Below, in pieces: positions 1 to 56,433 of a DNA stretch of 64,000 nt (position 1 is its first letter; each line of letters starts with the position of its first letter). Source of the stretch: Scenedesmus sp. PABB004 (taxonomy: Eukaryota). The stretch is from contig JABVCE010000004.1 of the NCBI GenBank assembly GCA_014905635.1, positions 1,488,001 to 1,552,000 on the forward strand. The letters run 5' to 3'. Under the pieces are notes generated by a model that worked only from the letters and a program-made list of their open reading frames with translations, searched no databases and had not been told where the DNA came from. The position numbers were made by a program, and so were the translations under genes.

Positions 1-927
1 CGGGGCGCGCGCAGCCGCTGGCGTGGGCCGCAGCCGCCGCGGGCCGTGCCCGCCGCAGCCGGCTGCCGCCGCCGGGTCCGGTCCGCGCCGGCGCCGCTGC
101 GTTCGCGCCGCGCCTGCTCCTTGAGCTCCTGCTTGAGCGCGCGCTTGTCGCGGTTGAGCTCCGCCTCGCGCCGGCTGAACTCGTCCTGCTGCAGCTTCAG
201 CGACAGCCCCCCGTCCGCCTTGAGCGTGGTGATGTTGTTCTGCTGCTCGTACAGCAGGTGCTTCACCTTCTGCTGGTAGATCTGCGGCGCACGCGGCAGC
301 GCGGCGCCGCGGTCGGCCGCGCAGCGAGCGGCCAGCCGCGCCAGGGCAGCTGGGCGCCGCCGCCACCCGCGGCACGGGCGCCCGCCGGTCGCGTGCGCTC
401 TGCCGCCCCGACCGCCGCTGCACCTTGAGCTCGCGCTGGTGCATGTCCTCGCTCTCCTCCATCTGGCGGTCCTGGTTGCGCATCTCGGCCTTGCGGTCCT
501 CCAGGTCCTTCTTGGTGATCTCCCAGAACGCGTTGATCTTGTCCTGCGGGCCGCATGGTTCGCGCGCGTGAGCGCGCCGCGCCGCGCCGCGCGCGCGCCG
601 CCTGCGTGCGTGCGCGTGCCGCCAGTCGCGCCGCGCCGCGCGCGGAGCTGGCGGCCCACCCGCTCGAGCTGCATGTAGTTGCGGTACTCCTCCTCCTTGG
701 TGTTCTCTCGCTCGAGCGTCTGGATCTTCTGGTGCAGCTCCTCGATGCTCGCCGCCTCGACGTCGGCTGGCGCCGGCGCTGCATCCTTCTTCTTCTCCTT
801 GGCGTCCTGCGGCGGGGTCACAGGGCGCGGGGTCACAGGGCGCCTGAGGCCACACACGGCCCTGCCACGCGCCGCGGTCCCTGCAGCGGCGCACCTTGGG
901 CTTGGCGGCCTTCTTCTTCGGCGCCAT
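1..927 (-). CDS. DRC4: Dynein regulatory complex subunit 4 (GAS8/PF2 family), 5' part; continues beyond window start
   Basis: Exons 927-895, 806-660, 543-424 and 281-114 join to [18 protein letters not shown]...[34 protein letters not shown]...[22 protein letters not shown]..., matching the GAS8 N-terminal signature ([20 protein letters not shown]). Confidence 0.92.
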
Positions 928-1512
928 TGCCGCTGCTGCTGGCGCGCGCGCCGCCGCGGCCGCGCCTGCGGCACCGGGCGCTGCTGGCCGGCCCGGCCGA
1001 GCCTGCCGCAAGCGCCGAGCTGCGAGCGAGCGCCCTGGGACGCGGGAGCGTGGAGCGGCGAAGACAAGGCGCGCTGCTGCTTGACCGAGCTCGCCCGCGG
1101 CGAGGGACCCACGAGCGTGGCTGGGCTTACGTCGAGAGGTGTCTCGCGTGCTCTTGGCTGACGAAAACAGCAGGAGCAGCTGCGCGGGGGCGTGACGACG
1201 CACGCTGGGCAGCTGAGCGGCCGGCGGCTGAGCGGCTCGCTCGGCGGCGCCCGCCGCGGAGAGATCAGGTTGCACACTCGCTCTCAGCCTGCTGCGCGTC
1301 TGCACGCGCCGCCCCCGCCCCCCGCCGGCCTCCCACGCGGCACGCTGCCTACGCCGACCACCGCGCGCGCGCGCCGCCGCCGCCGCCGCGCCGCGCGGCC
1401 CCCCGCGCGCCCCGGCGCCGGCGGGCAGCGCCGCGCGCCGTCAACGCACGATACAGAGGGTGCTGGCCCTGCAGCAGGCCCCTGGGCGTCCTAGAAGGCC
1501 CCCGGGGGCCTC

Positions 1513-3567
1513 CTAGTAGACCTCCACATGCCAAAGACCCTTGTGCTTCAAGCCCTCCACAAACTCCTCGAAGTTGAGGCCCTTTGCCTCAGCAACGCCC
1601 TTGAGCATGTCCAGGATGCCGGGCATCATGCCCTTGAGGCCGCAGAAGTACATGTGCGCGCCGTTGTCGAGCAGGTCAAACACCTCGTCGGCGTACTCCT
1701 CGACCTGCGCGGCGCGCGACAGGCACGCGGCGGCGAGAGAGACGCGGCGGCGAGAGAGACGCGGCGGGCGGCGGGCGGCGCGCGGGCTGGGCGGGCGCGT
1801 GCGCTGGGGCGCGCGGGCGCGGGCGGGCGGCGCGCGCCGCCGCCGCCGCGCCGGGGCGGCCCGCGCGCGGTGCGGCGCCGCGCCCCGCGCCGCGCGCGCG
1901 CCTTGTCCTGGATGTACATCTTGCCGCCGCGCTTGTTCTTGGGCCCCTCGCGGCTGAGCGCGTAGTCGAGGCGGAAGTTCTCGGGGAAGGTCGCGGTGAT
2001 CTGGGCCATCTCGTCGTCGTAGAGCTTCGCGTCGCTGTTGGCCACGCCCATGAAGATCCACAGCAGGCCCGTGAACTTCCAGCCGGGCACGTTCTCGAAG
2101 AAGCAGCGGCGCCAGAACGAGCGGAACGGCGCGATGCCCGTGCCGGTCGCGACGCAGATGAGCACGCTGTTGGGGTCCTCCGGCAGCAGCAGCACCTTGC
2201 CGGTCGGGCCTGGCGCGCGCCGCGGCGCGGCGCGGCGCGGGGCGGCGTCAGCGTCGGCGCCGCGCCGCGCTGCGCCGCCGCGCCGCGCCGCGGCGGCTCA
2301 CCGGTCATCATGATCTCGGTGCCGGGCGTGGCGTCGCAGAGGAAGTTGGAGCAGATGCCCTTCTTGGCGGGGTCATCCTTGCCCATCTCGGGGTCCCAGT
2401 ACGTCGCGCGGCGCACGCAGAGCGTGGTGGTGTTGCCGTCGAACGAGTCGCCGTAGCGGCTGGACGCGATCGAGTACAGGCGCACGCCGTGCGGCACCTC
2501 CTTGCCCTTGCTGTTCACCTTGGTGCCCTGCGAGGCGGACGCGCGCGCGCGCGGGCGCGGTCGCAGGCGGGCGGGCGGGCGGGCGGGCGCGTGAGCGGCG
2601 CGGCGCGCAGGTCGCCGGCCGGCGCCGGCCCCCGGCGGCGCTGCCGCCGCTCGCTGGCGCCGCTCGACGCCACTGCTGCGCGCTGCTGCTGCCACCGCCG
2701 CCGCCGCCGCCCGCGGCGCCGCCCCCAGCCGCTGCGCTGCCGCTGCGCTGCCGCGGCGCTGCCGCGGCGCTGCCGCGGCGCCCGGCACGCTGCCGTGCGC
2801 CAGGGCTCGCGTCTGCCCCCCCGGCGCGCTGCCGCTCCGGCTCGCCGCCGGGGCGCTCCATGCTGCTGCGCCCGCGCCCGCCCGCCGTCGCCCGCCAGCC
2901 GTCGCCCGCCGCCGCGCGGCGCGCGCACGCGCAGCAGCAGCGGCAGCGCGCGCGCTGCCGCCGGCCGCCGGCGCCCGTCCGGCTCGCCGCGGCGCCCGCC
3001 CGCCCCCGACCGGCCTCCCGGTCCGCCTCTGCCCGCCCCGCGACCGGCGCGCGGGCGCTCACGGGCGGGATGACGCCGTAGGACTGGCCCTCCCAGAAGG
3101 GAATCTTGCCCTCGGTCTCGATGACGATGTTGCACGTCTCGCCCGTCGCGTTGGGGCCGACGATGCGCTCCACGCTCTTCACCTTGGCCTTGAAGGGCGC
3201 CTTGTTGCTGTACGTGTTCAGCGGCATGGGGCCCTCCTCCAGCTTGAGCGGGACGTCCGCGCGGCTGATCTTGGTGGCCGTCGCGGTGGCGCGCACCACC
3301 ACCGCCGCGCGGGCGGGGCGGGCGCCGGCCTGCGGGCGCGCGCGGGCGGCGCGGCGTGAGCGGGGCCCGCGCCAGCGCCCTCCCGCTAGGGGCTGCTGCT
3401 GCCGCGCGCCCCCATTGCAGCCCCCGCGCACCACGCGCGTGGCCACGTTGGCACGAGCCATCTGCGGCGCGGGCGGGCGGGCTCAGGGGCGCCAATGCGC
3501 GCGCGGGCGCCGCGGCGCGGCGGGCGGGGATCATCAGCCCGCCCCTGCGCCGCACCTGGGCGGCCAT
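1513..3567 (-). CDS. FNR: Ferredoxin-NADP+ reductase, plastid (6 exons)
   Basis: Transit peptide, then [18 protein letters not shown]...[13 protein letters not shown] (FAD binding), [31 protein letters not shown] and C-terminal WHVEVY-TAG. Confidence 0.97.
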
Positions 3568-5330: not shown

Positions 5331-5824
5331 TGGCTCGCGCCGGACCCGTCCGCGCTCCGGCGGGCTGGTGGCGGGCGCAGATGCGCGCGGTGCCGCAGCA
5401 GCAGGGCGAGTGCGGGTGCAGTGCTCGGCGCGGCGCGGCGTCGGGAGGCGGCTGGCGGCACAGCGGGGCGCCGTGCGGCGCAGATCGGTCCCCGCCGGCC
5501 TTGCGGTTTGCGGTCTCGCCGAGCCCCGCCGCTCTCGCTCCTGCTGCCGCTCGCGACCGCCCGGCGCGGCCCACCGACACTCCACGCTCCGCTCCACGTC
5601 GCCGCGCAGCCTCGGCGCCAGCCAGCACGCCCCCAGGCGCAGCGGGCAGCGGGCTCTCGGTCGGGCGCTCCCCGCGTCGCGCCCAGGCGCCGGCCGCTCG
5701 CCCCAGCCCGCGCAGCTCGGTTGGCGCCACCTGATCAGGCCGCTGCGGGCGTGGCGCAGCATGGCGCGGCGCGGCTGAGGGGCCCCGGGCAGCAGCAGCA
5801 ACACATGGGGCCCCGGCCCGCAGC

Positions 5825-8050
5825 ATGAGCGTGTCCATCCACTCCGCGCGCCTGCCCACCGGTGACACGCCCGTGTGCAATGTGACACTCGAGCCCTACG
5901 TGCTGGTGAAGCGGGGGGACACGACCGTGAACGCAGATGAGATTCCGGAGGAGGGCTCCCCCGAGCCCGGCCTGCAGCTGCGCTCCCGCTGGTACCGGAG
6001 CTCCATCCCACGCGGCGGCGCGGTGTGCAGCGTGCACCCCGACAAGGAGGCCAGCGTGCAGTGCACCGTGTGCCTGCGCAGCAAGGTCGCCGTGCACCTG
6101 ACGTACCACTGCACCGCCGAGTGCTTCCGCAGCAGCTGGCAGCAGCACCGGGAGTACCACCATGCCGCGCACGCCAACGGTGAGGCCCACGCCGCCGCAG
6201 CCGCAGCGCGGAGGGGGCGCACGCGTGCGGGCGCGCCGCCCGAGCGCGGGCCCGCCGCGCGCCGCCGCCCGAGCGCGCCGCGCCGTGCCGCGCCGCGCCG
6301 CGCCGCGCCGCCGCCCCCGCAGGCCAGGAGAACGGGCTCGACACGCCGGGCAAGGTCGTCAGCAGCACCATGAGCGCGGGCGGCGAGACCTGGGTCGAGG
6401 TGCGCGCGCCGCGCCGCGCCGCCTGCCGGCAGCAGACGCGGCAGCGGGCCGGCCGCGCAGTCCGCGCCCGCCGCGCCGCCGCGCCGCTCACGCGCCGCCG
6501 CCGCCGCCGCCGCCGCCGCAGGTGTCGCGGTCGCGCAAGTACACGCCCGCGCAGGACGACGTCGGCTTTGTGCTCAAGTATGAGTGCAGCGTGTTTGACC
6601 CGCACCACCACTACATCGACCTGGGGCGCCCCATGTTCGCCTTCACCAGCCGCGTGCGCCCCGCGCCAAACCTGCCCGTGCGCAACCTCGCGCCGCTGCC
6701 GCTGCCGCACGGCGTGCACCGCGGCGGCCCGGGCAGCCGCTTCACCGTGCTCAGCTACAACATGCTCGCCGACCTCTACGCCAAGGTGCGGCGCGGCGGC
6801 GGGCGGCCCGGCGGCGGCTGCGGCATCCGGCCCAATGGCGGCGGCGGCGGCGGCAGAGCTGCGGCAGCGCGGGCACCGGCGGCGGCGGGCGGGCGGGCGG
6901 GGCGCGGGGCGGGGGCGGCGCCGCGCCCTGCCGCTCGGGGCCCTGCCGCTCGGGGCCCTGCGCCTGAGCCCGCCGGCCGCCGCCTGGCGCGCGCCGCCCG
7001 GCGCAGAGCGACGTGTACAACCACTGCCCCGCGTGGACGATGGCGTGGCACTACCGCAAGCGCAACCTGCTCAAGGAGCTGCTCACGCACCGCCCTGACA
7101 TCATGTGCCTGCAGGAGGTGCAGAGCGACCACTTCAGCGAGTACCTGCACCCCGAGCTCGTCAAGGCGGGCTACATGGGCATATACAAGAAGAAGACGAC
7201 CGAGATCTTCACCGGCAGCGCGTACACCATCGACGGCTGCGCGACCTTCTTCAGGCGCGCCGGCGCAGCGCGCCGCCGCAGCGCGCCGCGCCGCGCCGCC
7301 GCGCCGCCGCGCCGGTGCCGGCCGCCGCCGCGCCCGCACCCGCCGCCGACGCGCGCGCGGCCGCCGCGCGCCGCGCCGCGCCGCAGGAGCGACCGCTTCC
7401 ACCTGGTGAAGAAGTACGAGGTCGAGTTCAACAAGGCCGCCATCAGCCTGGCCGACCAGATGACCAACCCGCACCAGAAGAAGGCGACCATGAACCGCCT
7501 GCTCAAGGTGCGGCACGCGCCCCGCGCGCGCGGCGGCGCGGCAGGGGCCTGCTGCCTGCTGCAGCGGCGGCGGCCTGGCCTGGCGGCGGCGGCGGCGGCC
7601 TGGCCTGGCCTCGCAGCGGCGGCGGCGCCGCCGCGCCGCTCACGCGCGCGCCCCCGCGCCGGCGCCGCGCAGGACAACGTGGCGCTGATCGCGGTGCTCG
7701 AGATGGCGCCCGACCCGGAGCGGTCGAGCAAGCAGCTCATCTGCGTGGCCAACACGCACATCCACGCCAACCCGGAGCTCAACGACGTCAAGCTCTGGCA
7801 GGTGCACACGCTGCTCAAGGGCCTCGAAAAGATCGCCAACAGCGCCGACATCCCCATGCTCGTCGCGGGCGACTTCAACAGCGTCCCCGGCAGCGCCGCG
7901 CACTCGCTGCTCGTCAAGGGCCGCGTCGAGCCGGCGCAGCTGCTCAAGCAGGGCCCGCGCGGGGTGAGCGCGCGGCGCGGCGCGTCGCAGCGCGGCGTGG
8001 CGCGGCGCGGCCGGCCGCGCGCCGCGCCGGCGGCGCGCTGAGCGCGCCCC

Positions 8051-8087
<37 letters not shown>

Positions 8088-8572
8088 GCGCAGGAGTCGA
8101 GCGTGGACCCGCTGGGCCTGCTGCGCGACACCAAGCTGCAGCACAGCCTGCCGCTCGCGAGCGCGTACGCCGCGCTGCTCGACTTCCCGCCCACCACGGA
8201 GCAGCTCAAGCGCCAGCGCGCGCGCCTCGACCCCACGCACCGCGAGCCGCTGTTCACCAACCTCAACAGGCGCGCGCCGCCGCACGCCGCGCGCGGCCAC
8301 AGCGACCTCCGCCGCCGCCCGCGCGCCGCCGCCGCCCGCGCGCCGCCGCCGCTCACGCGCCGCCGCGTCGTCCGGGGCGCAGGGACTTCAAGGCCACGCT
8401 GGACTACGTCCTCTACACGCGCGACAGCCTCGCGCCCACGGGCCTGCTGGAGCTGCCGGCGGAGGCGGAGGTCGTGGCCAAGCCCGGCGACAGCCTGCCC
8501 AACGCCAACTGGAGCAGCGACCACGTCTGCCTCATGGCCGAGTTCCAGATCCTGGCGCACAAGGCCGCCTGA
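5825..8572 (+). CDS. CCR4: CCR4-type deadenylase (plant-type, N-terminal Cys/His-rich region plus EEP nuclease domain; 8 exons)
   Basis: FTVLSYNMLADLYA, DIMCLQEVQ, IDGCATFF, VANTHIH, VKLWQVHTLLKGLEKIA, AGDFNS, TLDYVLY, WSSDH; N-terminal CSVHP..CTVC..YHCTAECF. Confidence 0.95.
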
Positions 8573-9340
8573 GCACCGCCGGCCCGCGCCGGCTGCGCGC
8601 GCGTGGGCGCCGCGCGGCGCCGCTGCCGCGGCAGCGCTGCGGAGCCCGGCGGCTCGGCGGGCGACCAAGCTGGGGAGGGGGAGGGGGGGGGGAGAGCAGG
8701 CGGTCGGTCGGGAGGCGGAGCGCCCGGGGCGGGGGCGCCCGCGCCGGGGGCGCCGCGGCAGCAGGCTGCCGCGCCCCGGCGGGGCGCCGCCCGCTGGTCT
8801 AGCGTCCCGCGCGGCCGGCGTGCGGGCGACTGGCTGCACCGCCGCAGCCGCGCGCCGCGGCGGCGCCCGGCATCGGCGGTGCCCCAGAGGTGCCGTGCTC
8901 CGCGCCGCGCGTGTGCGCCGCCTGCAGCGCTGCTGCGGCGGCTGCGTGAGGCTGCTGCCGTCAGCGACGGCGGCATGGCCACACGTGCGGCTGGGTCGGC
9001 GGGCGCGGCTGTGCTGTCCGTGAGCGGCGCGCGGCGGCGGGCTCGGACCGCCCGCGCGCGGGCGCCTGCTGCTGCGGGCACGGCGGGCTGCGGCGCGTGC
9101 GCACGCCTCCGCCCCACACATTTTGCCCTCTGCGCCCAGTGAGCTCGCTGGGCGCCTCGCGCCACACCCTGATGCTCGTGCTCGCCGCCGCCCGCCCGCG
9201 CGGCCCGCCGCGCCTGCGGTGCGCTGCCGGCGGCCGCCGCCGGCGCGTGAGAGCGGCGCGCTGCCGTGTGCCTGCCTGTCGCGTGCAGCTGCAGGCGGGG
9301 CCGCCCCCTGCCGCGGCCACTCAGCAGCGTGGCGCGGCGC

Positions 9341-10687: not shown

Positions 10688-10981
10688 GCGCGCGCTGGGG
10701 CGGCGGCGGCGGGGAGCGGTTGGCGGCGGCGCCGCTGCTGTTGCTGCGCCGGCCGCCGAGCGGGCGCGCGGGCGCGGCGCGGTGCGGAGGGAGGAGCAGG
10801 GATCACCACCAGCGAGCGCGCGGGCGCCTCCGCGGCGCATGGGCCGGCGGCGGGCGCGGCGGTGCAGGCGACGACAGAGACCTCGCGCTTCTGCCGCGGC
10901 GCGGCGCCGCGGCAAAGCCGGCGCCGGCGGCGCCGGCGAGGGACGTCCCCCGCCGGCGGCGGCGCCACACCGCCAGCCGCC

Positions 10982-16900: not shown

Positions 16901-18319
16901 TGGGGTGCACCGGCTCCGACGCAGGGACGGCAACCGCCACCTCCTCCTTCAACGAGCCGTCGGCAGGGCCCTGCGCCGGCGCCTCCTCAGCTGATCGCAG
17001 GCTGCTCGGCGGTGCCGCCGCCACGTCGGCCAGCAGTCGCACCCCAGTCCTGCTGCCCAGGACGCGCCGCCGCGCGTCCGCGTCAACCGCCAGCACGCCC
17101 AACGCGCCGAGGCTCGCCACCAGCATCGCGCGGCAGTCAGCGGGGCCGCACGCGCTGCCCGAGCCAGCGCCGCTGGCAATCGGCGGCCGCGCGGCCGCGC
17201 CGCACGCGCTGCCGCCACGCCGTAGGCGGTCGAAGCACGACTCTGCGATGCGCAGCAGTGCCTCGACCACGCCGAGCTGCGGGGGCGCAGGCAAGGCAAG
17301 TCAGGCCAGCGGCCAGGGCGGCGGTGGCCGGCGCTCGGGCCTCCCTCTGGCGCCCGGCGCACGCCCGGCGCGCGCGCCTGCGTGAGGCGCTCCCGCGGCT
17401 TGGCCAGCGTGCACGCGTGCCACGCGGCGCACACCGCGGGCAGCTGCAGCTCCCGCGACAGCAGCGGCTTGCACAGCGCCGCCATCACGCCGCGCAGGGC
17501 CGCGCCGGTGAGGCCCTCGCCGCGGGCGGCCGCGTCTGAGAGCAGCTCCCACACGCCCGCCGCGCCCTCGGCCATCAGCGCCACGTGCAGGCGCTTGCAC
17601 TCGACCTCGTTCTGCGCAGCACGCAGCGCACGCGAGCGCGTCGGCCTGCCGCGCCCGCAGAGCCGCTGCGGCCGGCGCGCACGCCGCGCACCAGGAGCTT
17701 TTCGCTGAGCCGCCGCAGCGCCGCGCGGCGCATCTGCTGCTGCGTGGCCACGGTCGCTGCGATCAGGCCGTCCAGCTGGGCCTGGCTGTCCAGCGGTCGC
17801 TCCGCGCCCGCCTCCGCGCCCAGCAGCAGCGCGTGCAAGTTGACGCCGCGCGCCACCGCCGCGCGGCACGACGCCTTGCAGCTGGGCGCGCCGCAGTCGG
17901 ACGGCGCCGCGAGCAGCGCCAGCTCGGTGACCTCGACGCGCTGCTGCACCAGCACCTCGCCGCTGCGCGGCGCGCCGCCCCCGGCGCCGCCTGGCCCGGC
18001 CGGCGGGCGCCTGCCCGGCGGCGGCGGCGCGAGCGGCACGTCGCTCGTGACCTCCGCCACGACCTTGCTCCGCCCTCCGGTCGGGCCGATCACGCGGGCG
18101 GCCACCCACTCGGTGAACGCATCGAGCGCGCAAGGGAGCGGCTCCTCGGCCGAGGCGGCCAGACGCACGGGCTGGCGAGCAGGCGGCGCGAGGCGGCAAG
18201 GCGACAGCGGCGGCGGTGCTCTTGGGCTGCCCGCTGCCGTCGCTGAAGAGCACCTCCATGCCCGCACGCACCTGCCACTGCCCGCTGCCATCGCTGACGA
18301 GCACCTCCAGCTCCGCCAT
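10982..18319 (-). CDS. Large uncharacterised alpha-solenoid (armadillo-repeat-like) protein, multi-exon; exact model uncertain and it may be more than one gene
   Basis: Joinable exons with helical motifs such as EGAAGVWELL, ASLGALGVLAVD, CAAGALCSVA, ATFWCLAQH, ALNACWNLAA and GLYTLVRLV..AAAVLANVA; ATG at 18319, first intron 18271-18172, last exon ends at 10982. Confidence 0.55.
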
Positions 18320-18663: not shown

Positions 18664-21600
18664 ATGGCGCAGCCGGACGAGGACGACGAGGAAATGAGCC
18701 CGCAGGAGGAGGAGGCAGGCGAGCCGGCGCCGCCGCCGCCTGCGCAGCGCGACCGGAGCGCGAGCACGCTCGCACGCCGCGCTGCCCGCGCAGGCCTGGC
18801 GGCCCTGCTGGACGCGCACGGCCTCTCCCGGGCCGACCTGGGGAGCCCTGACATCACCGAGCTGGAGATGTTCATGCAGCCATACGCGCGGGTGCGGGCG
18901 GATCAGCCGATCAGCCAGCGCGCCGCAGCGGCGGTGCCCGCGCGGCCCGTCACGCCTCCGCCCCGCTCCGCCCCGCACCGCGCCGCGCGCCACAGATGGC
19001 GGGCCTGCACCACTTCCCGCACCTCACCAGCCTCAAGCTCATCGGCCAGGCGCGGCGGCGCTCGCTGCGCGCGCGCTGTGTGCGGGGTGCGCCGCGCCGC
19101 GTGCTGGGTGTGCTGCGCGCCGCCGCCCACGTGGTGCACGTCCTCGCCGCCCCGCCCGCGCTGCCCCTGCCCGGGCCACGCAGGGCCTCTCGCGCATCGA
19201 GGGCCTGGCTGGCTGCCCCCGCCTCGAGGCGCTGTGGCTGGCAGAGAACCGGATCGCGTGCACGCGCGGCCTCGCGCCCGCGCCGCGCTGCCTGCGCGCG
19301 CTGCACCTCTACTCCAACCGCCTCACCTCGCTCGCGGGGCTGGAGGGCCTTGCAGCCCTCGAGGTGCGGTCGCCTGGGCGGGCGGCCGCGGCGCGCGCAG
19401 CACGGCGCGCGCGGCGCGCGCCATGCGCGGCGCGGGCAAAGGCGTGGAAGCCGGCGGCAGCTGACTGCCGCGCCGCGCCCTCACGGCCGCCGACGCAGGT
19501 GCTGTGGGTCTCGGACAACTACCTCTCCTCGCTGGCCGGCCTGGGCGGCCTGACGGCGCTGCGCGAGCTCCACGCCGCGCGCAACGACGTCGCGACCCTC
19601 GGCGACGCCCTGGCCGGCTGCACCGCGCTCAGCGCGCTCAACCTGGCAGACAACCGTATCAGCAGCTTCCAGGCGCGCGCGCGGCGCAGGGGCCGCCGCC
19701 CCTCCCGCCGCCGCCGTGGGGCCTCTGCCTGCCGGGCCGACGCCGCCGCGCCGCCGCCCTCCGCGCCGCCCGCGCAGGAGGTGGCCGGCCTCTCGCGCCT
19801 GCCGGCCCTGCGCGAGCTCTGCCTCGCGGACCCGCTCTGGGGCGACTGCCCCGTCGCGTCGCTGTGCAACTACCAGACCTTTGCCCTGGCAGCGCTGCGC
19901 CGCCTCACCGCGCTCGACGGCCGCCCGCTCGCGGACGAGACGCGCGCCGCCGCCGCCGCGACGGTCGCCAGGAAGCGGCTGTTCTACGCCATGCGCGCGC
20001 GCGGCCTGCGCCGCGCCGCCGCCGACGCCGCCGACACGGCGCGCGCCGGGCGCCGGGTGCGAATTCGTGTGTGCGCTGCTTGGAAGCAGCGCACACATGC
20101 GCTGCTTGGAAGCAGCGCACACATGTGCGCGCGTGCGCGCGCTGTGCCGCCGACGCGCAGCTGAGAGGCGCCGCGCTCGCAGGTGCTGGGCGCGCGCTGG
20201 GGCGCGATGGAGGCGCGGCTCGCGTGCGCGGCGCGGGCGCTGCAGCGCGAGCTGCTCCGGCAGGACGGCGGCGCGCAGCAGGGCCTGGCGGAGGAGCTGG
20301 CCGGCCTGGCGGCGGCGTCCGAGGCGGTGGCGGGCCGGCAGCAGGCGCTGGCGGCCGCGCTCGAGGCGGACGCGCGCGCCGCGCGCGCCGCGCTGGAGGG
20401 CGCGGAGGCGCGGCTGCAGCTGGAGCTCGACAGCGGCGGCAACGTCCGGCTCGAGGAGGCCGCGCCCGGCGACGCCTGGCTGGCGTCCTGCCAGGAGCTG
20501 CTGCGCGGCCGGCTGCTGGGCGCGGGCGCGCCGGGCGGCGGGGTCGGCGTCGTGGACATCGAGGTGGTCGCCGCCGCGCACGTGCACAACCGCCACCTGC
20601 GGCTGGCGTGGGACGCGGCGGCAGCCGCGGCGGCGGCAAAGGCGTCGGCGGCAGCGGTCGGCGGCGCCGCTGACGGCGGCGCGGGCGCCGGGCAGCACGC
20701 GGGCGCGGAGGTCCTGCTGTGCGGCGAGACGCCCGGTCTGCCGGGCGACCTGCTGCGCGTCGCGCAGGCGGGCTTCCGGCCGCCCGCCGAGGAGTGCGCC
20801 GCGCTGGGCCTGGACGGCGCGGTGCGGCTCGCGAGCTGCGTGGAGCTGGCCGACCAGCCACGCCTGGCGGCGGCGCTTGCCGGCAGCGGCGCGCCCGGCG
20901 CGGCGCCGCTGGAGGGGCAGCTGCTCGTGTGCAGGGCGCTGCTGGGCGGCGCGACGCGCGAGGCGGGCGGCTGCGCGGAGCTGCTGCCCGCCGTGCCGCG
21001 GCCCGGCGTGCCACCGCCGCCGCCGGAGGAGGCGCCGCCCGTGCGCGCCGACCAGCACCCGGGTGCGAGCGCGGTGTGGCGGCCGATTTTCGGCGGCGGC
21101 GCGGTGCAGGAGGCGGCGGGCCACCGCGCGTGGTACGTGTTTGACCCCGCGGCGGTGCTGCCAGAGTTTCTGGTCACCTTCCGGCTCACCGCCGCGGCGG
21201 GGTCGCCGCTTGCGGCAGCCGCCGCGGCGGCCGGCGGATCGCCGCCGGCCGAGCTCGCGGCCAGCGCGGCGGCCGACCCGCTGCTGCGGCTGTGCAGGCG
21301 CCCGCTGCGGCGCTGGCTGGCGGCGGCGGAGGAGCAGCAGGAGCAGCAGCAGACGCTGCCGCCGCCACACGAGCTGGAGCTGGAGCGACGCTGCGAGGCG
21401 CTGCTTGCGGCCGCGGCCGTGGCGACGCCCCCGTGCACGCGCCTGGACGCCGCCACGCCCGCGTCGCTCGCAGCCGTCGCGGGGTGCGCCGCGCCGCAGC
21501 TGGTGGCGCTCGCCGAGCTCTCACTCCACGACTGCGGCCTCTCGGACGGCGGCCTCGGCCTGGGCGGCCTCCTCGTTCACCTGCCCTGCCTGACGCGGCT

Positions 21601-27038: not shown

Positions 27039-27073
<35 letters not shown>

Positions 27074-29833: not shown

Positions 29834-29883
<50 letters not shown>

Positions 29884-33400: not shown

Positions 33401-35040
33401 CGGACAGCTGCTCAGCAGTGAGTGCCGCGGCCGGCGGCGGGGGCGCCGGGCGGCGGCGGGGGCGCCAGGCGCGCCGCCGCGCGCAGGACCCGACGCCGCG
33501 CGCGCGCGGCGCAGGCTGGACGACCGCGGGCACCGCGAGCAACCCCTGGTCCTGGATCGACCCGGGCGCGTTTGCGCTCGTCGGCGCGGGTGCGACCGTC
33601 AGCGCCGCGCCGCCCCTCTCCCCCGCTCCCTTGCTCCCGCGGGCGCCGCCTCTGTGCCGCCGCCCACACCGCCGCGCCGCGCCGCGCCGCGCGCACACAC
33701 ACACACGCGCGCGCAGGCGCGTTCATGAGCAGCGTGACGCGGCTGACCGTGTCGCTCGCGGTGATCATGGTCGAAATCAGCGACGACGTGCACATGCTGC
33801 TGCCCGTGCTCGTGGCGATCATGGTCGCCAAGTGGGTCGCCGACGCGGCGTGCCACAGCCTCTACCACGCGCTGCTCGAGGTCAAGGCCGTGCCCTTCCT
33901 CGACCACGAGCCCGTGTCGCGCTTCTCGCTCGAGCTGCTCCCCGTCAGCGCGACGATGCGCGCGCCCGTGGTCAGCCTGGAGCTCACGATGAAGGCGCGC
34001 GCGCGCGCTGCGCCGCGCCGCGCCGCGCCGAGCGCCGCACACCGCGCGCCGCCGCGCCGGGCCGTCCGCCTCACACGCACACGCGCTCTGCCCCACGTGC
34101 TGTGCTGTGCCCGTCTGCCGCTGTGCCCCGGTGTGCGTGGGGGCGCAGGTGAGCGACATCCAGGCCATCCTGCGCGACACGAGCCACAACGGCTACCCCG
34201 TGGTCCGCGACAGCAGCGCGGGCCAGATCTGCCTCGGCCTCGTCACGCGCGCGCACCTGCTCGTGCTGCTGCAGCGCCTCATCGACGGCTACAACCCAAC
34301 CACCGGCTCGCCCGCGCCCAGCGGCGCGGGGGGCGCCGGCGGCGGCGGCGCCGCCGGCGGCGCGCGCGGCGGCGCGGGCGGCGCCACGGCGCCGGGCGGC
34401 GCGGCCGACACGCCCGCGCAGCAGCACCAGCAGCCGCTGCTGGCGCGTGAGCTGTCGTGGCAGGACCTGAACCGCAAGATGATGGAGCCGGTCGAGGCGT
34501 CTGAGCTGGAGCGGCGCGGCGGCGCGGCGGAGCAGCAGATGGTCGCGCTGCCGGGCGCCGCCGACTGGGAGCTCGACCTCGCGCCGGGGCTGCTCGCGCA
34601 GACGGTGGACCTCACGCCCTACGTGAACACGTCGGTCATGAAGGCGCGCGCACTTGCAAGACGGCGCGCACCGCGCCTTGCAGGACGGCGCGCGCCGCCC
34701 GCCGCGCCGGCGCCTGTGCTGAGCGCCGCCGCCGTGCCTGCGCCTGCGCCACGCGCGCGCGCGCGCGCAGGTGTCTGAGAGCATGTCCCTGGAGCGCGCG
34801 TACATCATCTTCCGCACCATGGGCCTGCGGCACCTCATCGTCGTCGACGCCCACAACCGCGTGCGGGGCATCGTGACGCGCAAGGACCTGCTCGGGTTCA
34901 AGCTCGACGAGGCCGTCGCGCGCGCGCTGCGCCGCGTCGACTCGGCGCGGCAGCTCGGGCAGGCCGCGTGGCTCGGCGGCGCGTCGCCGGCGGGCGGCGT
35001 CGGCGGCGGCGCTGCGGGCGGCAGCGGCGGGATCGTGTGA
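30427..35040 (+). CDS. CLC-family chloride channel/antiporter with two CBS domains (CLC-6/7/CLC-d-like; about 14 exons)
   Basis: FESIDY, SSGVPEVMAYLNG, GPEGPMIHIGA, KRDFVTAG, FNAPIGGLLFAFEE, SGLFVP, SLYH, HNGYPVV, FRTMGLRHLIVVD, GIVTRKDL. Confidence 0.95.
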
Positions 35041-46888: not shown

Positions 46889-48060
46889 ATGGACGCCGCC
46901 GCGCCGCCGCACGGCCCGCCGCCCGCGTGCGCTGCGCTCGCGGCGAGCTCAGCCGCGGCGGCCGGCCTGGCGCCCGTGGCTGTGCCGGTCAGCGTCAACG
47001 TCATCCATCTCGTCTGCCTCGACCACGCGCACGCGCGCGCGCTGTTCGACGCGTACGCCGCGCCCGCGACCACGCCCGACGCGCGGCAGCTCCTCGGCTG
47101 GAGCCTCATCTCGGTGCGGCGGCGTGCCGGGCCTGCGCGGCGCGGCACGCACACGCGCAGCGCCACCACGAGCGCCGCCGCCGCTGCGGGCCGCTGGCCG
47201 CAGGCGCTGTCGAGCCACAGCGCGCGCGAGGAGATGGTGCTGTACCCGGTGGTGCGCGGCACGCTGGGGCCGGCCGCCGCCGACGCGGCGCAGGCGGAGC
47301 ACGCCGCGCTCAAGTCGCAGCTCGCGGCGCTGGACGCGATGAGCGTGGCGGACCCGGCCTTTGACGGCACGCTGCGCGCGGCGATGGCGGCGGCGGTGGC
47401 GCACATGGCGGAGGAGGAGGCGACGACGCTGCCGGCGCTCGCGTCGCTGCTGAGCGCGGAGGCGCAGCTCGCGCTGGGCGTCCAGTTTGAGGCCGCCAAG
47501 GCGCGCATGCTGCGCAGCGGGGCCGCCGCCGGGGCGCGGGCCGGCGGGCGGCCTTGCGCGCGCCGCGCGGCGCCGCCTGCCCCACCCGCCAGCGAGCGCG
47601 CGCGCGCGCCGCGCGCCCGCAGGTGCGCGCGCCGACGCGGCCGCACCCCGAGGCCACCAGCTTGCCGCCATTCAACGAAACGGCGTTTGCAGCAGCCAAG
47701 CAGGTCGACACCGCGCTCGACCAGGCGCGCATGCCGAGCCTGGTGCCCTCGGTGGTGGGCCTCAGCCCCGCGGGCGCCGCCGCCCTGCAGGCTGGGGCGC
47801 CCGCGCCCCTGCCCGCGCCCGCGGGCGCCGCGGGGCAGGCCGAGCACGCCGCCGAGCCCGCCGCGGCGGCGGCGGCCAGCGTCGCGGGCACGCGCGTGGC
47901 GACGGTCGAGGGCGGCGGCGCGCGTGCCGCGTCGGGCGACACCGAGATGATGCTGGCGGGCCAGGCGGCGGGCGACGAGGGCATGGGTGAGCCGGGCGAC
48001 GACGACGACGCGCTCGGCGCGGCAGGCGGCATGCCGGGAGACCTCACCGCGGCTGCGCCG

Positions 48061-48110
<50 letters not shown>

Positions 48111-48201: not shown

Positions 48202-48358
48202 GGGGCGCGCTGGGGACCCAGCAGCAGCCCGCAGCGGCGGCCGGCCGGTTGGCTCCGCGTTGCCGCTCAACGAGGGGCTGCTCGGTGGAAGCGTAAACAC
48301 GCGTTGTTACTCGGCGGCGCGCGCCGGCACAACTGCAGCCGCGGCCGGCGCCGCGCCG

Positions 48359-51300
48359 TCACGCCGCCAGCGCGGCGCGCACCGCGCCGAGCACCAGCTC
48401 CCGCAGCTCCGCGCGCTCGCTCCGGAACCACGCGTCCATGCCCGGCACGCCGCGCGTGAGGCGCAGCTCCAGCAGCACCTGCGCGCCGCCGTGTACGCGC
48501 GCCGTGGCGTACAGCGCGTCCTGCCCCGTGCCGGGCACCTGCGCGCGCGCGCGGGCGTGTGCGGGCGGGCGCAGTGGCGTCGGCGTCGGCGCCGGCCGCG
48601 GTGCCCCGCGCTCTCCCTCCGGGGGAGCGCGGCGCCCCGTCGGTTCCGCGCAGCGCCCGGGGCCGGCGGCCGCGCGCCGCACCGGGCGCTGCGCGAGCAC
48701 AAACACGCGGACGGCCGCCAGCGCCGCCTTTGCCGCGTCGCCGTCGGCGACGGTGACGTCGAGGCGCTGCGCGGGCGTCTCAGGCAGCGCGCGCCAGGCG
48801 GCGAGGAAGGCCTGGCCGTCGATGGCGCCGCCCTCCTCCAGCACCGCGGGCAGCGGCACCGCGTCGTCCCAGTACAACACGCCCAGCTGGTCGCTGCGCA
48901 GCGCCACCTGCGCGCGCGGCAGGCGCGGACGAGCTGGGACGCGCGCGGCCCTCGCGCGCGGCGCTGGGCGTGCGCGCGCCGGGCGGCGGCGGCGCGCGCC
49001 GCGCGCGCCGCGCGACGGGACGCGCCTGCAGCCGCGTGCTCGCCGGCGGCGGCGCGAGCTTTGCCGGGTTGAACGCCAGCGGCACCGCCGCGCGCCCGAC
49101 GCCGCCGGGCGCGAGCGGCCCCACGGCGACGACCTGGTCCGCGGGCGCGACGCCAAAGCTGCGGCGCGGCGCGGGCAGGGCGCGCGCGAGGGGCGCCGTC
49201 GCACGGCGCGGCACGCGGGGCGGGCGTCGCGGGGCCGCCGCAGCAAGCGCAAGCGGCCGCCGCAGCGCCGCACCTGTTGCTGTTGACCTGAAGCATGAAG
49301 CCGCCGACCGGCCCCGCGCTGCCGTTGCTGATGGCCAGGTCGTACACGAGGCCGCCGCCCCCCGCGCGGCGCAGCTGCCCCGCGACGCTCAGGCCCTTGC
49401 CCTTCTCGCCGCCCAGCAGCAGCGGCAGGCCCGCCGGCAGCGCGCCCGGCGCTGGCGGCGCCGCGGCGGCGGGGGCGGGTGGGGCGCCAAACATGTCGAA
49501 CGGGTCCGCCGCCGCGGCCGCGGCCGCGGCGGGCGGCGCGGCCGCAGCCGCTGCTGCGGGCGCCGCCGCCGCCGCCGCGGGCGCGATGTCCAGCCCGCCC
49601 AGCAGGTCGTCCAGGCCGCCTGCGCGCGGGGGCGACGGCGCGGGCGGGTGAGTGGTGAGCGGCGCGCGGGCCGGGGCCGGCGCGCGCGCGCGCAGGGCCG
49701 CGCCGCGCAGGCGGCGGCGCCGCGCACCGGGCGTGGCCGCGCCCGCCGCGGGCGCGGGCGCGGGCGGCGCCGGCCCGCCCAGCAGGTCGTCGCCCAGCAG
49801 GTCCACGACCGGCGCGGAGCTGGCGGCGGGCGCGGGCGGCGCCGCCGGCGCGCCGCCGACCTGCGGCGCGCCGCGCAGCGAGCCCCGCGGCGCCGGCGTC
49901 AGCGACGGCGGCGCCCGCGATCACGGCGCCGCGCGCGCGCCCGCGCGCGCGCGCCGCCGCGCACCGCCGCCGCGCCGCCGCCGCCGCCGCCGTCGTCGTC
50001 GAGCCCCGCCTCGACGAGCGCCGCGCCGGCGCCGGCGCCGCCGGCGGCGAGCGCGTCGACGCTCGCGACGGCGAGGCGCTGCCGGCTGACAAAGGTGTCT
50101 GCCGGCTTGTGGAAGACGGAGGCGAGGCTGGCGATCTGGTGCATGAGCGACCGCAGCAGCGCGGGGTCGAGGGTCGCCGCGTCGTCGGTGATGACCGGCT
50201 TGCTCGCGAGCACCACGTCCTTGGCCGCCTGGGGGTGTGTGTGTGGGGGGGGGGGGGGGGGGCATGGCGACGAGCGCGTGGGCGAGTGGGCAGGCCGCCC
50301 GACGACGCGGCCCCCCTCCCTCCCTCCCGGCGCGGCGGCGGCGCGGCGCGGCGCGCGCCTCGGGGTCTGTCGAGAGCAGGCGCCAGTAGACATACGCGCG
50401 GTCGCGCAGGTCGGGGTTGTCCGTCTCGTTCGTCGCCGCGCTGAGCACGAGCTGGATCATGCGCTGCACGCCCTCGGTCGGCTTCTTCAGGAAGAGCTTC
50501 ACCGTCGCCGTCAGCAGCTGCAGCTGGACCTGCGGCGCCACCACGCGGCGCGGCGCGGCGCGGTCGGCGTCGCGCGGTCGGCCGCCGCGCGCGCGCGCAC
50601 GCCCCCCCTCCGCGCCCCCCGGCTCGCAGCAGCGGCGCCGCGGCGGTCGCGCACCATGCTCGTCTCCTCGGGGAAGGTCTCCAGGAATGTCTCCAGCAGC
50701 TCGTCGGCGTTGTCGATGCGCTCCGCGTACTCGCCGATGATCCACACCATGCTCGCCTTGGCCTCGGGCTCGTCCAGCGCGTCGAGCGAGTCGCAGAGCT
50801 GCGCGATGATGCTCTCATACTGGTTGGGGTAGCGCCGGAAGATGTCCTGCGTGTGTGTGTGTGTGTGTGATTGTGGGGGGGGGGGGCGTGTGATTGTGTG
50901 TGCGTGTGTGTGGGCGTGTGATTGTTGGGGGGGGGGGGTGGACAGGCGGGCGGGCGGGCGGGCGGGAGGGCGCACGGCGGCGGCGGCGCGCCGTGCACAG
51001 CGTGCGCGCGCGCTTGATGACGATGACCGCCTCCTGGACCACGTAGTTGACCTTGGTCGCGATCAGCTCCAGCAGCACCGCGATGCACCGCTGCGCCGCG
51101 GCCTCCAGGCTCACCGCGCAGCGCCCGATCGCGCGCACCGCCTGCGGCGCGCGCGCGGCCGCGGGCGCTCGGCCCGGGCGCGGGCGCCGCGCCGCCGCCC
51201 AACCCGCCGCCACACAGTGCCGCCGCGGCCGCACCTTGCGCACAAAGTCGACGTCCACCTCCTGCGCGTACTCCTTGAACTCCAGGAGCACCTGGTCGAT

Positions 51301-52811
51301 GTTCTTGTCGCTCGCGAGCTGGATCATGATCTCCAGCTTCTCCATCTTGACGTAGATGGGGTCGTTGTACTTGCAGAAAAACACCTGTTGGTGCGCGGGG
51401 CGGCGGCGGCGGCGGCGGCGCAGTTTGTGTGTGGGCGCGCGAGCGTGAGCGGGCGGCGCGGCGTGCGCGCGTGGCGCCCGCATTTTATTCACGCGGCGCC
51501 GCGCGGGCGAGGCGCGCCGCCTGCGGCGCGCGTGCTGCGGGCGCGGGCGCGCACCTTGACCTCGTGCGCGAGGATGTGGGGCCAGCGCTGCACGATGAGG
51601 CTGATGTTGCGCAGCGCGACGTACTGCACCTCCGGCTCGGCGCTCAGCAGCGTGACGAGCGGCGGCGCGAGCTTGCGGCTCCACGCGCGGATGAGCTCCT
51701 CGTTGCTCACCTCCTCCATCATGCGCAGCACCACCTGCATCGCGCAACGGAGCGGCGGCGGGGGCGGGGGAGCGCGAGCGGGCGCGCGCGTCGGACGGAG
51801 TGCGGCGCGAGGCGGCGCGCGGGCCGGCTGCGCGCGCCGCGCGCGGCCGCGCCTTGGCGGCGGAGAGCACGACCGCGCTGTTGACGTGCTGCAGGCGCGG
51901 CAGCACGCGCTCCACGATCTTCTCCGCGTCCTTGCTGTCGGTGATGGTGTAGTTGACCAGCGCGTCGAGGATGAACACCTGAGCGACCACAGGCGCGGGC
52001 GAGCGCGCGCTGAGCGGGCCGGGCGGCGGCGCGGGCGGCGCGCGGGCGGCGCGCGGGCGGCGCGCGGGCGGCGCGCGGCCGGCCCGGCGGCGCGGCGCGG
52101 GCGACGCGCGCGCGGCCCGGCGGCGCACCTGGCCCCACTCGGTGCACTCGTTGAGCGCGGCGAGGAGCTTGAAGAGCGTGTGCGGCGTGATGGTGAGCAC
52201 CTCCTTGCCGCTGACCTCCTGGATCTCCTGCAGCGCCGCGAGCGCGTTTGCCACGACCATGGGGTTGGCGTCCGACAGCATCTCCTGCGCGCACGCGCCG
52301 CGGCGGCGGGGGTCGGTCGGCCGCGCCCGCCGCCGCCGCTGCTGCTGGTGCGGCCGCCGCCGGCCGTCGCGGCTGCTGCCGCCGCCGGCCAGGCCAGCCC
52401 CCCAGCGCGGGGTCCTATGCGCACGCACGCGCAGCATGTCGAGGAAGCCGCGGTCCTCCACGAGCTCGGGGTTGATGTCAAACAGCTTCGCCACGCACAC
52501 TGCCGCGGTCTTGCGCACGTACGGGTCGTCGTCCTGCGGGCCGCGGCGGCGGCGCGCGCGGCGGCGGCGTCGCCCCCCCCCCCACGCCCGGCGCACGTGC
52601 CACTGCTCCTGCTGCCGCCGCCGCTGCCGCCGCTGCTGCCGCAGCCGCGACGCCGCGCGCTGCTGCAGCCGCGACGCCGCGCGCCACCGGCGCGCCTTGA
52701 GGCAGCGCTGCAGCGGGTCGCAGAGGTACTCGGTGATCTTGTCCACGCGGATGCAGCCCATCGTGCGCACCGCGAGCGCGCGGATGAGCGGGTTGGGCTC
52801 TTGCGAGTCCT

Positions 52812-52857
<46 letters not shown>

Positions 52858-53298
52858 GGCGCGCTGAAGCAGCGGCGGCGGGCGCGCGCTGCCGGGGCGC
52901 GCGGCGCGCGCCGCGATCGCCCGCGCGCGCGCGCCTTGACGAAGGTGTTGACCGCCATGATGGCGAGGTCGGGCTGCGTCTTGGCGTAGTTGATGAGGTA
53001 GAGGTAGACGAGCTTCTTGAGCTCCAGGTCGTCCGTCTGCATGCAGTTCACGACCGCCGGGAAGAGCATGGAGACGTCCTTGCCCACCGTCATTGCGGCG
53101 ATGACCTTCTTCACCGCCTCCTTCTTCTTGTAGCGATCGAGCGAGGCGAGCTCCTCCTTGAGCTCGTGGATCTCGCCTGCAGCAGCGGCGGGCGGCAGAT
53201 GGGCCCCAACCGCCGCCCCGCGGCGCCCCCGGGACGCGCCGCCGGGACCGGACCCTCCCCGCACCCTTCTTGGTGGTGGAGAAGTATTTGCCGTCCAT
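48359..53298 (-). CDS. AP-1/AP-2 adaptor complex beta subunit (beta-adaptin; about 17 exons)
   Basis: [109 protein letters not shown], hinge with DLLG motifs and an appendage domain. Confidence 0.97.
50851..50940. repeat. Intronic (GT)n / poly-G compound microsatellite
   Basis: GTGTGT runs, GTGTGATTGT x3 and long G tracts inside a beta-adaptin intron. Confidence 0.85.
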
Positions 53299-53518
53299 GG
53301 CTGCGGCTGCTGGGGCCGGGCGGCGGCGCGGCGCGGAGGGCGGGAGCAGCGCCGCTCACGGCGGGGCCATCAGCCGCGTGCTGCGCGCCGCCTGTGCTGC
53401 CGGGGCCGCGCGAACGGTTGTGCGGGCGGCGGCGGCGCCGCGCGGCGATCGGCGGGCGCGAGCGGGGCGCACGCCGAGGCGTCGCACGGCGAGGGTTCAC
53501 CCCGTTCGACCCCGCGCG

Positions 53519-54647: not shown

Positions 54648-54853
54648 CGCGACCGTGTGCGAGCTGTGGGCGGCTGGCCGCTGCTGCGGTCGCCGCTGCT
54701 GTCCGGCCCCTGTGCTCGCGGCTGCGTGCTCGCGCACACGCGCGTTCCGGCGGGAGACAAATCAAGCAGTACGCTCAGTTCATTCGTTGGCCCGCCACCG
54801 CTGCGGGCCGCGCCACAAAGCCCTGCGCCACGGCTCGGCCGGCGCCCCCGCCC

Positions 54854-56433
54854 TCACGCCTGCCGCGTCACGACGAGCCGCTGGCTGCCGCTCCAGACCG
54901 CGCCCGGCGCGAGCGTGACGGGGCCGGACCCCGCGACGGCGGGCTCGATGCACAGCATGCGCTGCGCGCGGCGGCGGCGCGGCGCGGCGCGGCGGGCGGG
55001 CGGCGTGAGCACGGCCCGCGCCGCCGTGCGCAGCGCTGTGCGCGTGGGGGGGCGAGGGGGGGGGGCGCAGGCCCCACGCGCCGCGCCTTGTACTCGTCGT
55101 CGCCAAAGTCTGCCATCGCTGCGGCCTTGTCGACCCAGGGGTTCCACACCACGGCGTCGGGGAACGCGGTCTTGTGCACCTCCACCACCGCGCCGCTGCC
55201 CCGGTCCACGACCTGCACGCGGCGCGGGGGGGTCGGCCGGCCGCACGGCCCCCGCCGCCGCCGCGGCCGCCGCGAATGCGCACGCGGCGCGGCGCGCGCA
55301 CCCGCATGGCGCCGTCCGGCGCGGCGAGGTAGATGCGGTCCACCTCGCGGTCAAAGCCCACGGGGCCGGCCTGCGTGTGCCGCGCGCCGCCCGCGAGGCT
55401 GTCGGTGAAGGCCACGCCGTCGAGGCCCTCCACGACCACGGACGTGATGTCGGGCACGGCAAAGTAGGTGTGCAGCGCGGCGGTGAACGCCATGGCCGCG
55501 CCGCCTGGCGGCGCGGGGAGGCAGGCGCCGCGCGGCAGCGCCGCGGCGGCGGCGGGGCGCGGGCGGCAGGGCGGAGCGTGGGCGCCCCGCCGCTGCGCCG
55601 CTGCGCCGACGGCGTGCAGCGCGCGCACCCGTGTTCGTGACGGACAGCTCCTGCGTAAGGCTGCCGTCGCCGAGCTCCACGCGCACGCTCAGCTCAAAGG
55701 GGTGGGGGTACTTGGGGTCCTCAGAGCCGCTGGCCTTGAGCACCTGGCGGGGCGCGCGAGCATGCATGCCGGCCGGCCGTTGGTCGGGCGTGGGGGAGGG
55801 CTGGGCGGCGCACGGCGCCGGGCGGCGCGGGCGCGCGGCGCGCACCAGCGTGGCGGCGGCGCCCGACTCGGCGGCGAGCTCGAACCGGGAGTTGCGCGCA
55901 AAGCCGTGCTGCCCCAGCGGGCCCAGCTGGCCAAACTGGGGGAAGCACACCGGCACGCCGCCCCTGCGGCGCGCGGGCGCGCGCGCGCGCTCGCTTGCGA
56001 GTGCGGCGTCGCGCGGCCGCCGAGCCCGCGCCGCCGCCCGCCGCGCCTGATGGCCTTGGGGGGCTTGAATATGGCTCGGCTGCTGGTGAACAGAATGTCC
56101 TGCAGCGGCGCGGTCGGGCCCGGGGGTGTGCCGGGGCCGCCAGCCAGCTCGCGCGGCAGCGCCGAAGCGCTCGCCGCCCCCTGGCCAGGCCGCACCTTGC
56201 CGCTGGGGTCCTTCCAGGACGTCACGTGCGCGCCGTGGAGGTAGATCTCCGCGCTGGCGCCCTGCGGCGGCGCGTCGAGCGGCGGCGCCGGGCGAGCGGT
56301 CGCCGCCGCGACCGCTGCTGCCCGCGCCGCGAGCACGCGCACCGCCGCACGGCGCGCGGCGGCCACGTCGCACCTGCGGGGTGCGCAGCACCACCTTGTC
56401 CATGCCATTGCCGGCGTCCACTTCCACGGGCAT
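54854..56433 (-). CDS. Glucose-6-phosphate 1-epimerase (aldose 1-epimerase family; 8 exons)
   Basis: HGAHVTSW, KAIR/GGVPVCFPQFG, QHGFARN, ALHTYF, EVDRIY, VVWNPW, MLCIEP. Confidence 0.95.

Follow-up and report, generated by a model that had tools for sequence, protein, structure and literature searches.

Evidence for frequent GC-AG introns restricted to an AG|GCGCG context in very GC-rich nuclear DNA of a chlorophycean green alga

We analysed a 64-kb window of nuclear DNA from Scenedesmus sp. PABB004 (contig JABVCE010000004.1, positions 1,488,001 to 1,552,000; "the window" is this whole stretch of 64,000 nucleotides (nt), numbered here from its first letter), in which many introns appear to begin with GC instead of GT. 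The 39 introns of four genes resolved by protein homology, encoding a beta-adaptin, a CLC channel, a CCR4-like deadenylase and an aldose-epimerase-like protein, comprise 13 GC-AG introns, 25 GT-AG introns and one odd intron, and the GC donors read AG|GCGCG (the bar marks the exon-intron border). They are probably genuine U2-type spliceosomal GC-AG introns, made frequent by GC pressure and tolerated only where an exonic AG compensates. The host, which is very rich in GC, belongs to the chlorophycean green algae and is close to Scenedesmus and Tetradesmus, and the case is one of a known phenomenon in a new lineage, with an unusually clean context rule; literature searches, which covered few subscription journals and no supplements, did not turn up any account of green algae in which GC-AG introns are frequent.

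The first-pass annotation of this DNA had listed 24 AG|GCGCG donors, and all 24 read so on the strand given for them. No excess of the heptamer is seen (81 copies on both strands, compared with 105-117 expected from Markov models of orders 1 to 3), so that the motif by itself carries no weight and the gene models have to bear the claim. These were obtained with a protein-to-genome spliced aligner in which any donor dinucleotide was permitted and an AG acceptor was required, so that donor placement was blind to the distinction between GT and GC. The aligner landed exactly on the claimed base at 13/13 of the claimed sites tested (five in the beta-adaptin gene, four in the CLC gene and two in each of the others, with four to eight homologs per gene; Table 1), the GC-AG borders being fixed by independent alignment at every one of them. 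The junctions run gap-free through conserved motifs, in alignments to Tetradesmus and Scenedesmus homologs with 81-95% protein identity, and taking out the GC introns restores the conserved open reading frame. The lengths of the GC introns are not a multiple of 3 in nine of the 11 cases from the beta-adaptin, CLC and CCR4-like genes, and their removal is therefore needed to keep the frame.

Codon statistics extended the analysis beyond the four genes. A codon log-odds table was derived from the verified exons and introns, and the drop in coding signal was scored across candidate donors over 16 codons on each side; 4.0% of random positions pass this step test. Three motifs stand out above that background, each at p ~1e-13: AG|GTGCG (17/37 sites pass), NG|GTGCG with a base other than A at -2 (29/132) and AG|GCGCG (22/81, p = 6e-13). 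The pass rates of NG|GCGCG, again with -2 not A (36/960), AG|GCGGC (2/92), AG|GCCGC (2/56) and AG|CGCGC (6/135) are those of the background. All 22 passing AG|GCGCG sites were already on the first-pass list, which omitted no passing site; the test fails for two of the listed sites, 17377 and 49025, the latter verified by homology. The motif-class excess puts the window-wide share of GC donors near 28% (about 22 of 76-80 step-positive donors). A share of about 20% had been claimed previously, from 24 donors among roughly 115 introns counted by hand (21%), and this figure lies within the overall range of roughly 20-33%; the parallel claim that about half of the AG-preceded donors are GC agrees with 13/22 of the verified and 22/39 of the step-positive donors. 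Counting introns by clustering every coding-to-noncoding step was too noisy (250 events, including antisense echoes), and the motif-class excess was used in its place.

The one clear difference between the two intron classes was found in the last bases of the exon. AG occupies -2 and -1 in 13/13 GC donors, compared with 9/25 GT donors (Fisher p = 1e-4), and 10/11 GC donors have A or C at -3; at -2 and -1 it is the GC donors that lie closer to consensus, in the manner of compensation. Downstream of the border the GC donors read GCGCG[CG], with GCG at +3 to +5 in 11/11 tabulated GC donors and in both epimerase-like ones, and this GCG is common to GT and GC donors: the 32 tabulated donors have 29 C and three A at +4, and the 38 donors obtained by including the six epimerase-like ones (all GCG) have 35 C and three A. 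The mismatches to canonical U1 at +4 and +6 that the first-pass annotation had stressed are thus present, but they are not special to the GC introns, the 25 GT donors also having GCG at +3 to +5. The acceptor CGCAG|G is likewise common to both classes (-3 C and AG in 33/33 introns, -5 C and -4 G in 28/33). The AG acceptor, which the aligner requires, is present in 39/39 introns of the four genes (5800-8600, 30600-35000, 48500-53300 and 54900-56300). Intron lengths have a median of 127 nt and a range of 87-221 (33 introns) and are similar in GC and GT introns (Mann-Whitney p = 0.69).

No T-rich tract precedes the acceptors. The scarce A residues 20-50 nt upstream of them occur in CTCAC, CTGAG and CCGAC-like words, which may be candidate branch sites, and (AC)n or C-run tracts such as ACACACACACACACACGCAG stand directly before several acceptors (50847-50880, 50229-50260, 33716-33740, 51385-51440).

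The window is 79% G+C and the interiors of the introns 89%. At intron-interior sites with a G before and a G after them (G_G), the middle base is C in 439 cases, G in 124, T in 31 and A in 28. At +2, C is found in 59% of the AG-context donors, compared with about 93% at these neutral G_G sites, and in 0/16 verified donors without exonic AG. Consequently, +2 C is strongly rejected where the exonic AG is missing, and T seems favoured at +2 even after AG, where GC donors would still be mildly disfavoured. These values suggest a mechanism in which the lineage donor consensus would be (A/C)AG|GYGCG and an extreme substitution pressure towards GC (from mutation bias, from GC-biased gene conversion or from the two together) would convert +2 T to C wherever splicing survives the change. 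Splicing would survive +2 C only with an exon-final AG and GCG at +3 to +5, the contacts at -2 and -1 offsetting the lost contact at +2. Composition pressure may thus set the frequency of GC donors, and compensation the sites at which they are permitted. Such compensation would be of the kind seen in GC-AG introns elsewhere, measured here against the lineage's own GYGCG consensus, with contacts of U1, U5 or U6 as the presumable compensating agent. GC pressure, rather than an altered spliceosome, would then determine how often GC donors occur.

Relatives of the CLC gene bear on this mechanism. Metagenome contigs searched with the large CLC exon gave 48 loci, of which only L040, on a chlorophyte contig of 64% GC, was informative. 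At the residue and phase of two window GC introns, those starting at 32175 and 33995, its introns begin with GT. A GT intron at residue 502 is common to L040 and the window gene, and the two genes are therefore comparable. The pattern, which rests on two introns and one relative, would fit a T-to-C change at old introns in a GC-rich lineage; the earlier proposal that GC pressure erodes the +2 T fits both these orthologous GT introns and the 89% GC of the intron interiors. Two further loci (L011 and L012, 51% GC) have a classic ctgcag|GCAAGA or GCAAGT intron elsewhere in the CLC gene. No orthologous introns were found in the three best loci, of 74-76% GC and with 78% identity in the large CLC exon (L001-L003), in which the gene is nearly intron-free in appearance; high GC is not always paired with an intron-rich, GC-donor architecture.

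Several points weigh against reading these sites as GC-AG introns driven by GC pressure and exonic compensation. Splicing is deduced solely from protein homology and codon statistics, and the share of 33% (13/39) is biased upward, since the four genes were picked for carrying claims. One beta-adaptin intron, at 51012, matches neither a GT nor a clean GC donor. G is found at +4 in 0/38 donors where about 20% would be expected (p ~2e-4), which GC pressure together with canonical U1 does not explain. The number of base pairs with canonical U1 fails to predict the use of motifs (NG|GCGAG, 1/144, and AG|GTGAG, 0/7, are unenriched), and this count, tried as a predictor, was set aside as not clean. 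The missing +4 G and the failure of the pair count keep a small place for a recognition feature peculiar to the lineage. Finally, the alignment score is unspecific. GT-only models lose about 320 score units in the beta-adaptin gene, 210-260 in CLC, 160-180 in the CCR4-like and 88-116 in the epimerase-like gene; adding GC to GT rescues +293 to +320, adding CG +273 to +315 and adding GG +172 to +194, so that any extra dinucleotide makes up for a good part of it. That CG comes close to GC is due to a nearby register, which can absorb the intron at small cost. The score gain was dropped as a test for this reason, and the case for GC donors therefore rests on the exact blind placement, the gap-free junctions and the flanking AG.

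The first-pass annotation had explained the GC donors by a relaxed or re-specified recognition of 5' splice sites (variant U1 or U6 small nuclear RNA (snRNA), or altered U1C, LUC7 or PRP8). Recognition of this kind would accept C at +2 and prefer C at +4, and GC donors would be a second native code instead of tolerated erosion. We consider re-specification unlikely. The composition of +4 speaks for it, G being absent among the 38 donors though about 20% of neutral G_G sites hold it, as does the failure of the canonical-U1 pair count to forecast motif use; for the GTGCGTG donors of Ostreococcus, the text of Irimia and Roy raises complementing snRNA changes as worth exploring (PMC2483917). On the other side, GC donors need more of the flanking consensus than GT donors, NG|GCGCG remains at background, +2 T is retained far above the neutral expectation, and the +4 C is common to GT donors, so that it indicates nothing specific to +2. 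The word "relaxed" does not describe these donors, which at -2 and -1 are stricter than the GT class. A sharper form of the idea is a two-letter donor code MAG|GYGCG, in which +4 C is positively required and +2 C is a native alternative, implying co-evolved U1 or U6 snRNAs or 5' splice-site-binding proteins; we regard this too as doubtful. A scan of the window at the Rfam gathering thresholds gave 0 matches, and thus no snRNA match within the 64 kb. Re-specified machinery is unproven and is not needed to account for the data.

It is considerably less probable that the junctions are mis-modelled, with nearby GTs as the real donors and proteins that carry small lineage-specific insertions or deletions. 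An in-frame GT lies no more than 45 nt from most claimed donors, 17377 and 19050 are followed by GTGCG-type sites after 15 and 30 nt, and the blind model itself overfitted at 7943. At that place in the CCR4-like gene (7943-7963, plus strand) all five homologs put the donor at a CT dinucleotide in the blind model; the structure more probably has a GTGAG donor 21 nt further on, at 7964, and an insertion of 7 residues specific to the lineage, and the case is a warning that a donor-blind aligner can overfit. Against mis-modelling stand the gap-free AG|GC junctions through conserved motifs at 13 sites (three to eight homologs each), the cost of 88-320 score units per gene under GT-only models, and the scores of -4.4 to -12.8 bits for the extra codons that would lead to a downstream GT.

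A sequencing or assembly artefact, in which the T at +2 of ordinary GT donors was systematically miscalled as C or changed to C in polishing, is highly improbable. DNA of 79% GC is hard to sequence, and the odd beta-adaptin intron could be read in this way. Its exact fit to the invariant VIVIKDIFRRYP motif demands a CG start at 51012 (atcaag|CGCGCGCG...CGCAG), and the alternative GC-AG start at 51009 inserts one extra Arg; the loss of one G in the assembly would be an alternative explanation, making the start AG|GCGCG. Yet +2 C is confined to donors after exonic AG, and an error process would be blind to such context. Some further evidence comes from the freshwater metagenome X1, the sole DNA run with part of the region (share 0.06; depth 2-5; contigs 97-99% alike). 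A 392-nt contig with four other letters spans 52881-53274 and has no listed difference at the donor 52933-52934, which at this depth is weak support; 52934 is the only verified GC donor clearly covered. At 85% likeness X1 gave 626 placements, mostly partial and driven by GC repeats, with only a few short contigs of a close relative usable.

A separate splicing system is the least probable explanation of all. U12-type minor introns are marked by the donor [AG]TATCCTT and by a branch site similar to TCCTTAAC, and they too can have non-GT or unusually uniform donors; the uniform heptamer could recall them or a mobile introner family. The donors here read GCGCG[CG] and lack the U12 motif, no TCCTTAAC-like branch motif was found in the inspected 3' regions, these regions share no internal sequence beyond GC-rich repeats, and acceptor, length and +3 to +5 are those of the GT class. 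According to its text, a 263-species survey detected neither minor introns nor minor snRNAs in Chlorophyta (PMC11347168), and both forms of this reading are largely refuted.

The individual sites are collected in Table 1. Outside the four homology-resolved genes, Pfam profiles bear on several of the donors. The NAD_binding_1 profile is continuous across 1901, its positions 2-80 ending at the donor and 81-106 following the predicted acceptor. In the SET gene, use of the acceptor at 24985 reopens the frame, which then has a positive coding score and a Pfam SET match (profile 1-36 upstream, 49-105 downstream), and the profile match stops at the last residue ahead of donor 24806. In the LRR gene, an LRR_4 match reaches within one residue of donor 19673, and LRR_8 matches stop at donor 23464 and resume at residue 2 past the predicted acceptor. 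Pfam scans of the pieces flanking 45549, 45753, 17377 and 47501 gave no usable match. The predicted acceptors come from a simple picker that recovered 8/11 known acceptors and served as a lead only. Two sites stand apart. An in-frame GTGCGG follows 19050 after 30 nt, the 10 extra codons scoring -12.8 bits, and an in-frame GTGCGC follows 17377 after 15 nt, with -4.4 bits for the extra codons; at homology-verified sites with similar downstream GTs the extra codons score -4.5 to -6.5 bits. In-frame GTs 9-30 nt downstream are found at five of the 24 GC donors (17362, 19080, 55077, 32416, 49016), and these could be candidate alternative 5' splice sites.

Table 1 Coordinates of GC-AG introns (whole intron) and of AG|GCGCG donors (heptamer) in the window, with the evidence for each.
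Feature	Gene	Coordinates	Strand	Phase	Evidence
GC-AG intron	beta-adaptin	52810..52934	-	0	gtcaag|GCGCGCGC...CGCAG|gac; blind alignment, 4/4 homologs
GC-AG intron	beta-adaptin	52534..52695	-	0	blind alignment, at least 3/4 homologs
GC-AG intron	beta-adaptin	51735..51852	-	0	donor-blind alignment
GC-AG intron	beta-adaptin	50229..50358	-	0	donor-blind alignment
GC-AG intron	beta-adaptin	48908..49025	-	0	homology-verified (donor-blind alignment); step test failed, upstream score low (9.9)
Odd intron, absent from the first-pass list	beta-adaptin	50847..51012	-		AAG|CGCGCG...AG, or GC-AG from 51009
GC-AG intron	CLC channel	32175..32301	+	0	blind alignment; orthologous intron in L040, tggcag|GTAGGT
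GC-AG intron	CLC channel	32401..32522	+	0	donor-blind alignment
GC-AG intron	CLC channel	33995..34148	+	0	blind alignment; orthologous intron in L040, atgacg|GTAAGA
GC-AG intron	CLC channel	34644..34770	+	0	donor-blind alignment
GC-AG intron	CCR4-like deadenylase	7255..7386	+	2	blind alignment, exact with 3/5 homologs; equivalent placement slid 3 nt (one codon) with 2/5
GC-AG intron	CCR4-like deadenylase	8270..8382	+	2	blind alignment, 5/5 homologs
GC-AG intron	aldose-epimerase-like	55964..56046	-	2	blind alignment, 8/8 homologs
GC-AG intron	aldose-epimerase-like	54962..55086	-	0	blind alignment, 8/8 homologs
Probable GC-AG intron	NAD_binding_1 (ferredoxin-NADP-reductase-like)	1705..1901	-		step test passed; acceptor predicted
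Probable GC-AG intron	SET domain	24985..25159	-	2	step test passed
Donor 24806	end of SET domain	24802..24808	-		step test passed; predicted acceptor 24652
Donor 19673	LRR	19671..19677	+		step test passed; predicted acceptor 19777
Donor 23464	LRR	23462..23468	+	2	step test passed; predicted acceptor 23558
Donor 19050, probable, less certain	LRR	19048..19054	+		step test passed
Donor 45549	P450	45545..45551	-		step test passed; predicted acceptor 45396
Donor 45753	P450	45749..45755	-	2	step test passed; predicted acceptor 45650
Donor 47501	hemerythrin-domain	47499..47505	+		step test passed; acceptor uncertain
Donor 113		109..115	-		step test passed; acceptor at or beyond the window start
Donor 17377, doubtful		17373..17379	-		step test failed; no family match

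A six-frame Pfam scan of the window recovered an intron-rich eukaryotic gene array: a NAD-binding reductase, the CCR4-like deadenylase, a UAA transporter, an LRR protein, a SET protein, the CLC channel with CBS domains, a Ras-type GTPase, a P450, a hemerythrin-domain protein, the beta-adaptin, a SpoU methylase, the aldose-epimerase-like protein, a hexapeptide transferase and a PAPS-reductase-family protein. The closest protein matches are chlorophycean, chiefly from Scenedesmaceae; the spliced CCR4-like protein has 95% identity to its homolog in Scenedesmus sp. NREL 46B-D3, and the spliced beta-adaptin and CLC proteins have 82% and 81% identity to Tetradesmus obliquus. The best matches of beta-adaptin and CLC in T. 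obliquus have neighbouring locus tags on one contig (OEZ86_000650 and OEZ86_000660), and the NREL 46B-D3 matches of beta-adaptin and the CCR4-like protein appear to share a contig (its length is 330375 in both cases). Because the matches are co-located on these relatives' contigs, the gene order looks conserved with Scenedesmaceae. The UAA-family nucleotide-sugar transporter (9662-10981, minus strand) matches positions 3-309 of the 311 in its Pfam profile within a single open frame, and this gene appears to be intron-free amid intron-dense surroundings.

Ordinary U2-type GC-AG introns make up about 1% of the introns in most eukaryotes and have a consensus near AG|GCAAGT. The introns described here are like them in their GC start, in their AG acceptor and in a donor whose remainder is closer to consensus than that of GT introns; they are unlike them in being 20-30 times more frequent and in the compensating consensus, which consists of the exonic AG and GCG at +3 to +5 rather than AAGT.

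A closer parallel in frequency is the haptophyte Emiliania huxleyi, whose genome is 65% GC and in which, according to the text of Feldmesser et al. (2014, PMC4028052), 56-65% of donors are GC, with AG acceptors, as checked by reverse-transcription PCR, expressed sequence tags and RNA-seq. The same text ascribes the shift towards GC donors to GC content and shows, for the models of the Joint Genome Institute (JGI), that predictors expecting GT mis-model the genes (PMC4028052). Both organisms combine very GC-rich nuclear DNA with GC donors at tens of percent and AG acceptors, which in the window are represented by 79% GC overall, 89% in the introns, 13/39 GC donors and the aligner-required AG (PMC4028052). 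Unlike E. huxleyi, with its majority of GC donors, the present host is a green alga with about 20-33% of them, in a window that is richer in GC than that genome (79% compared with 65%; PMC4028052). A strict AG|GCGCG flanking rule also sets the window apart, none being given in the text on E. huxleyi, its sequence logos left aside (PMC4028052).

The GYGCG part of the donor has a precedent among green algae. The 5' splice-site consensus of Ostreococcus lucimarinus is GTGCGTG, called "atypical" by the authors, who tie strong signals to the low intron number of this intron-poor genome (text of Irimia & Roy 2008, PMC2483917). O. lucimarinus is like the present host in being a green alga whose GT donors have G, C and G at +3 to +5, and unlike it in that the window is intron-rich and has GC donors, the term "GC-AG" occurring 0 times in the O. 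lucimarinus text (PMC2483917). Whether the snRNAs of GC-rich green algae track GYGCG donors is a question raised for Ostreococcus in 2008, in the text of the same paper (PMC2483917), and the window brings it up again. If the doubtful MAG|GYGCG code were true, it would have no predecessor in the green lineage and would offer a natural system in which to study how far 5' splice sites can depart from GT.

For annotation, the consequence is that in this organism and its relatives about one intron in four will be modelled wrongly by gene finders restricted to GT-AG, and the genome needs GC donors enabled in the AG|GCGCG context, a simple sequence-only rule for where +2 C is tolerated. For the biology of the lineage, these introns indicate that base-composition pressure can push a core splice signal, the +2 T having given way to C in over half of the donors preceded by an exonic AG.

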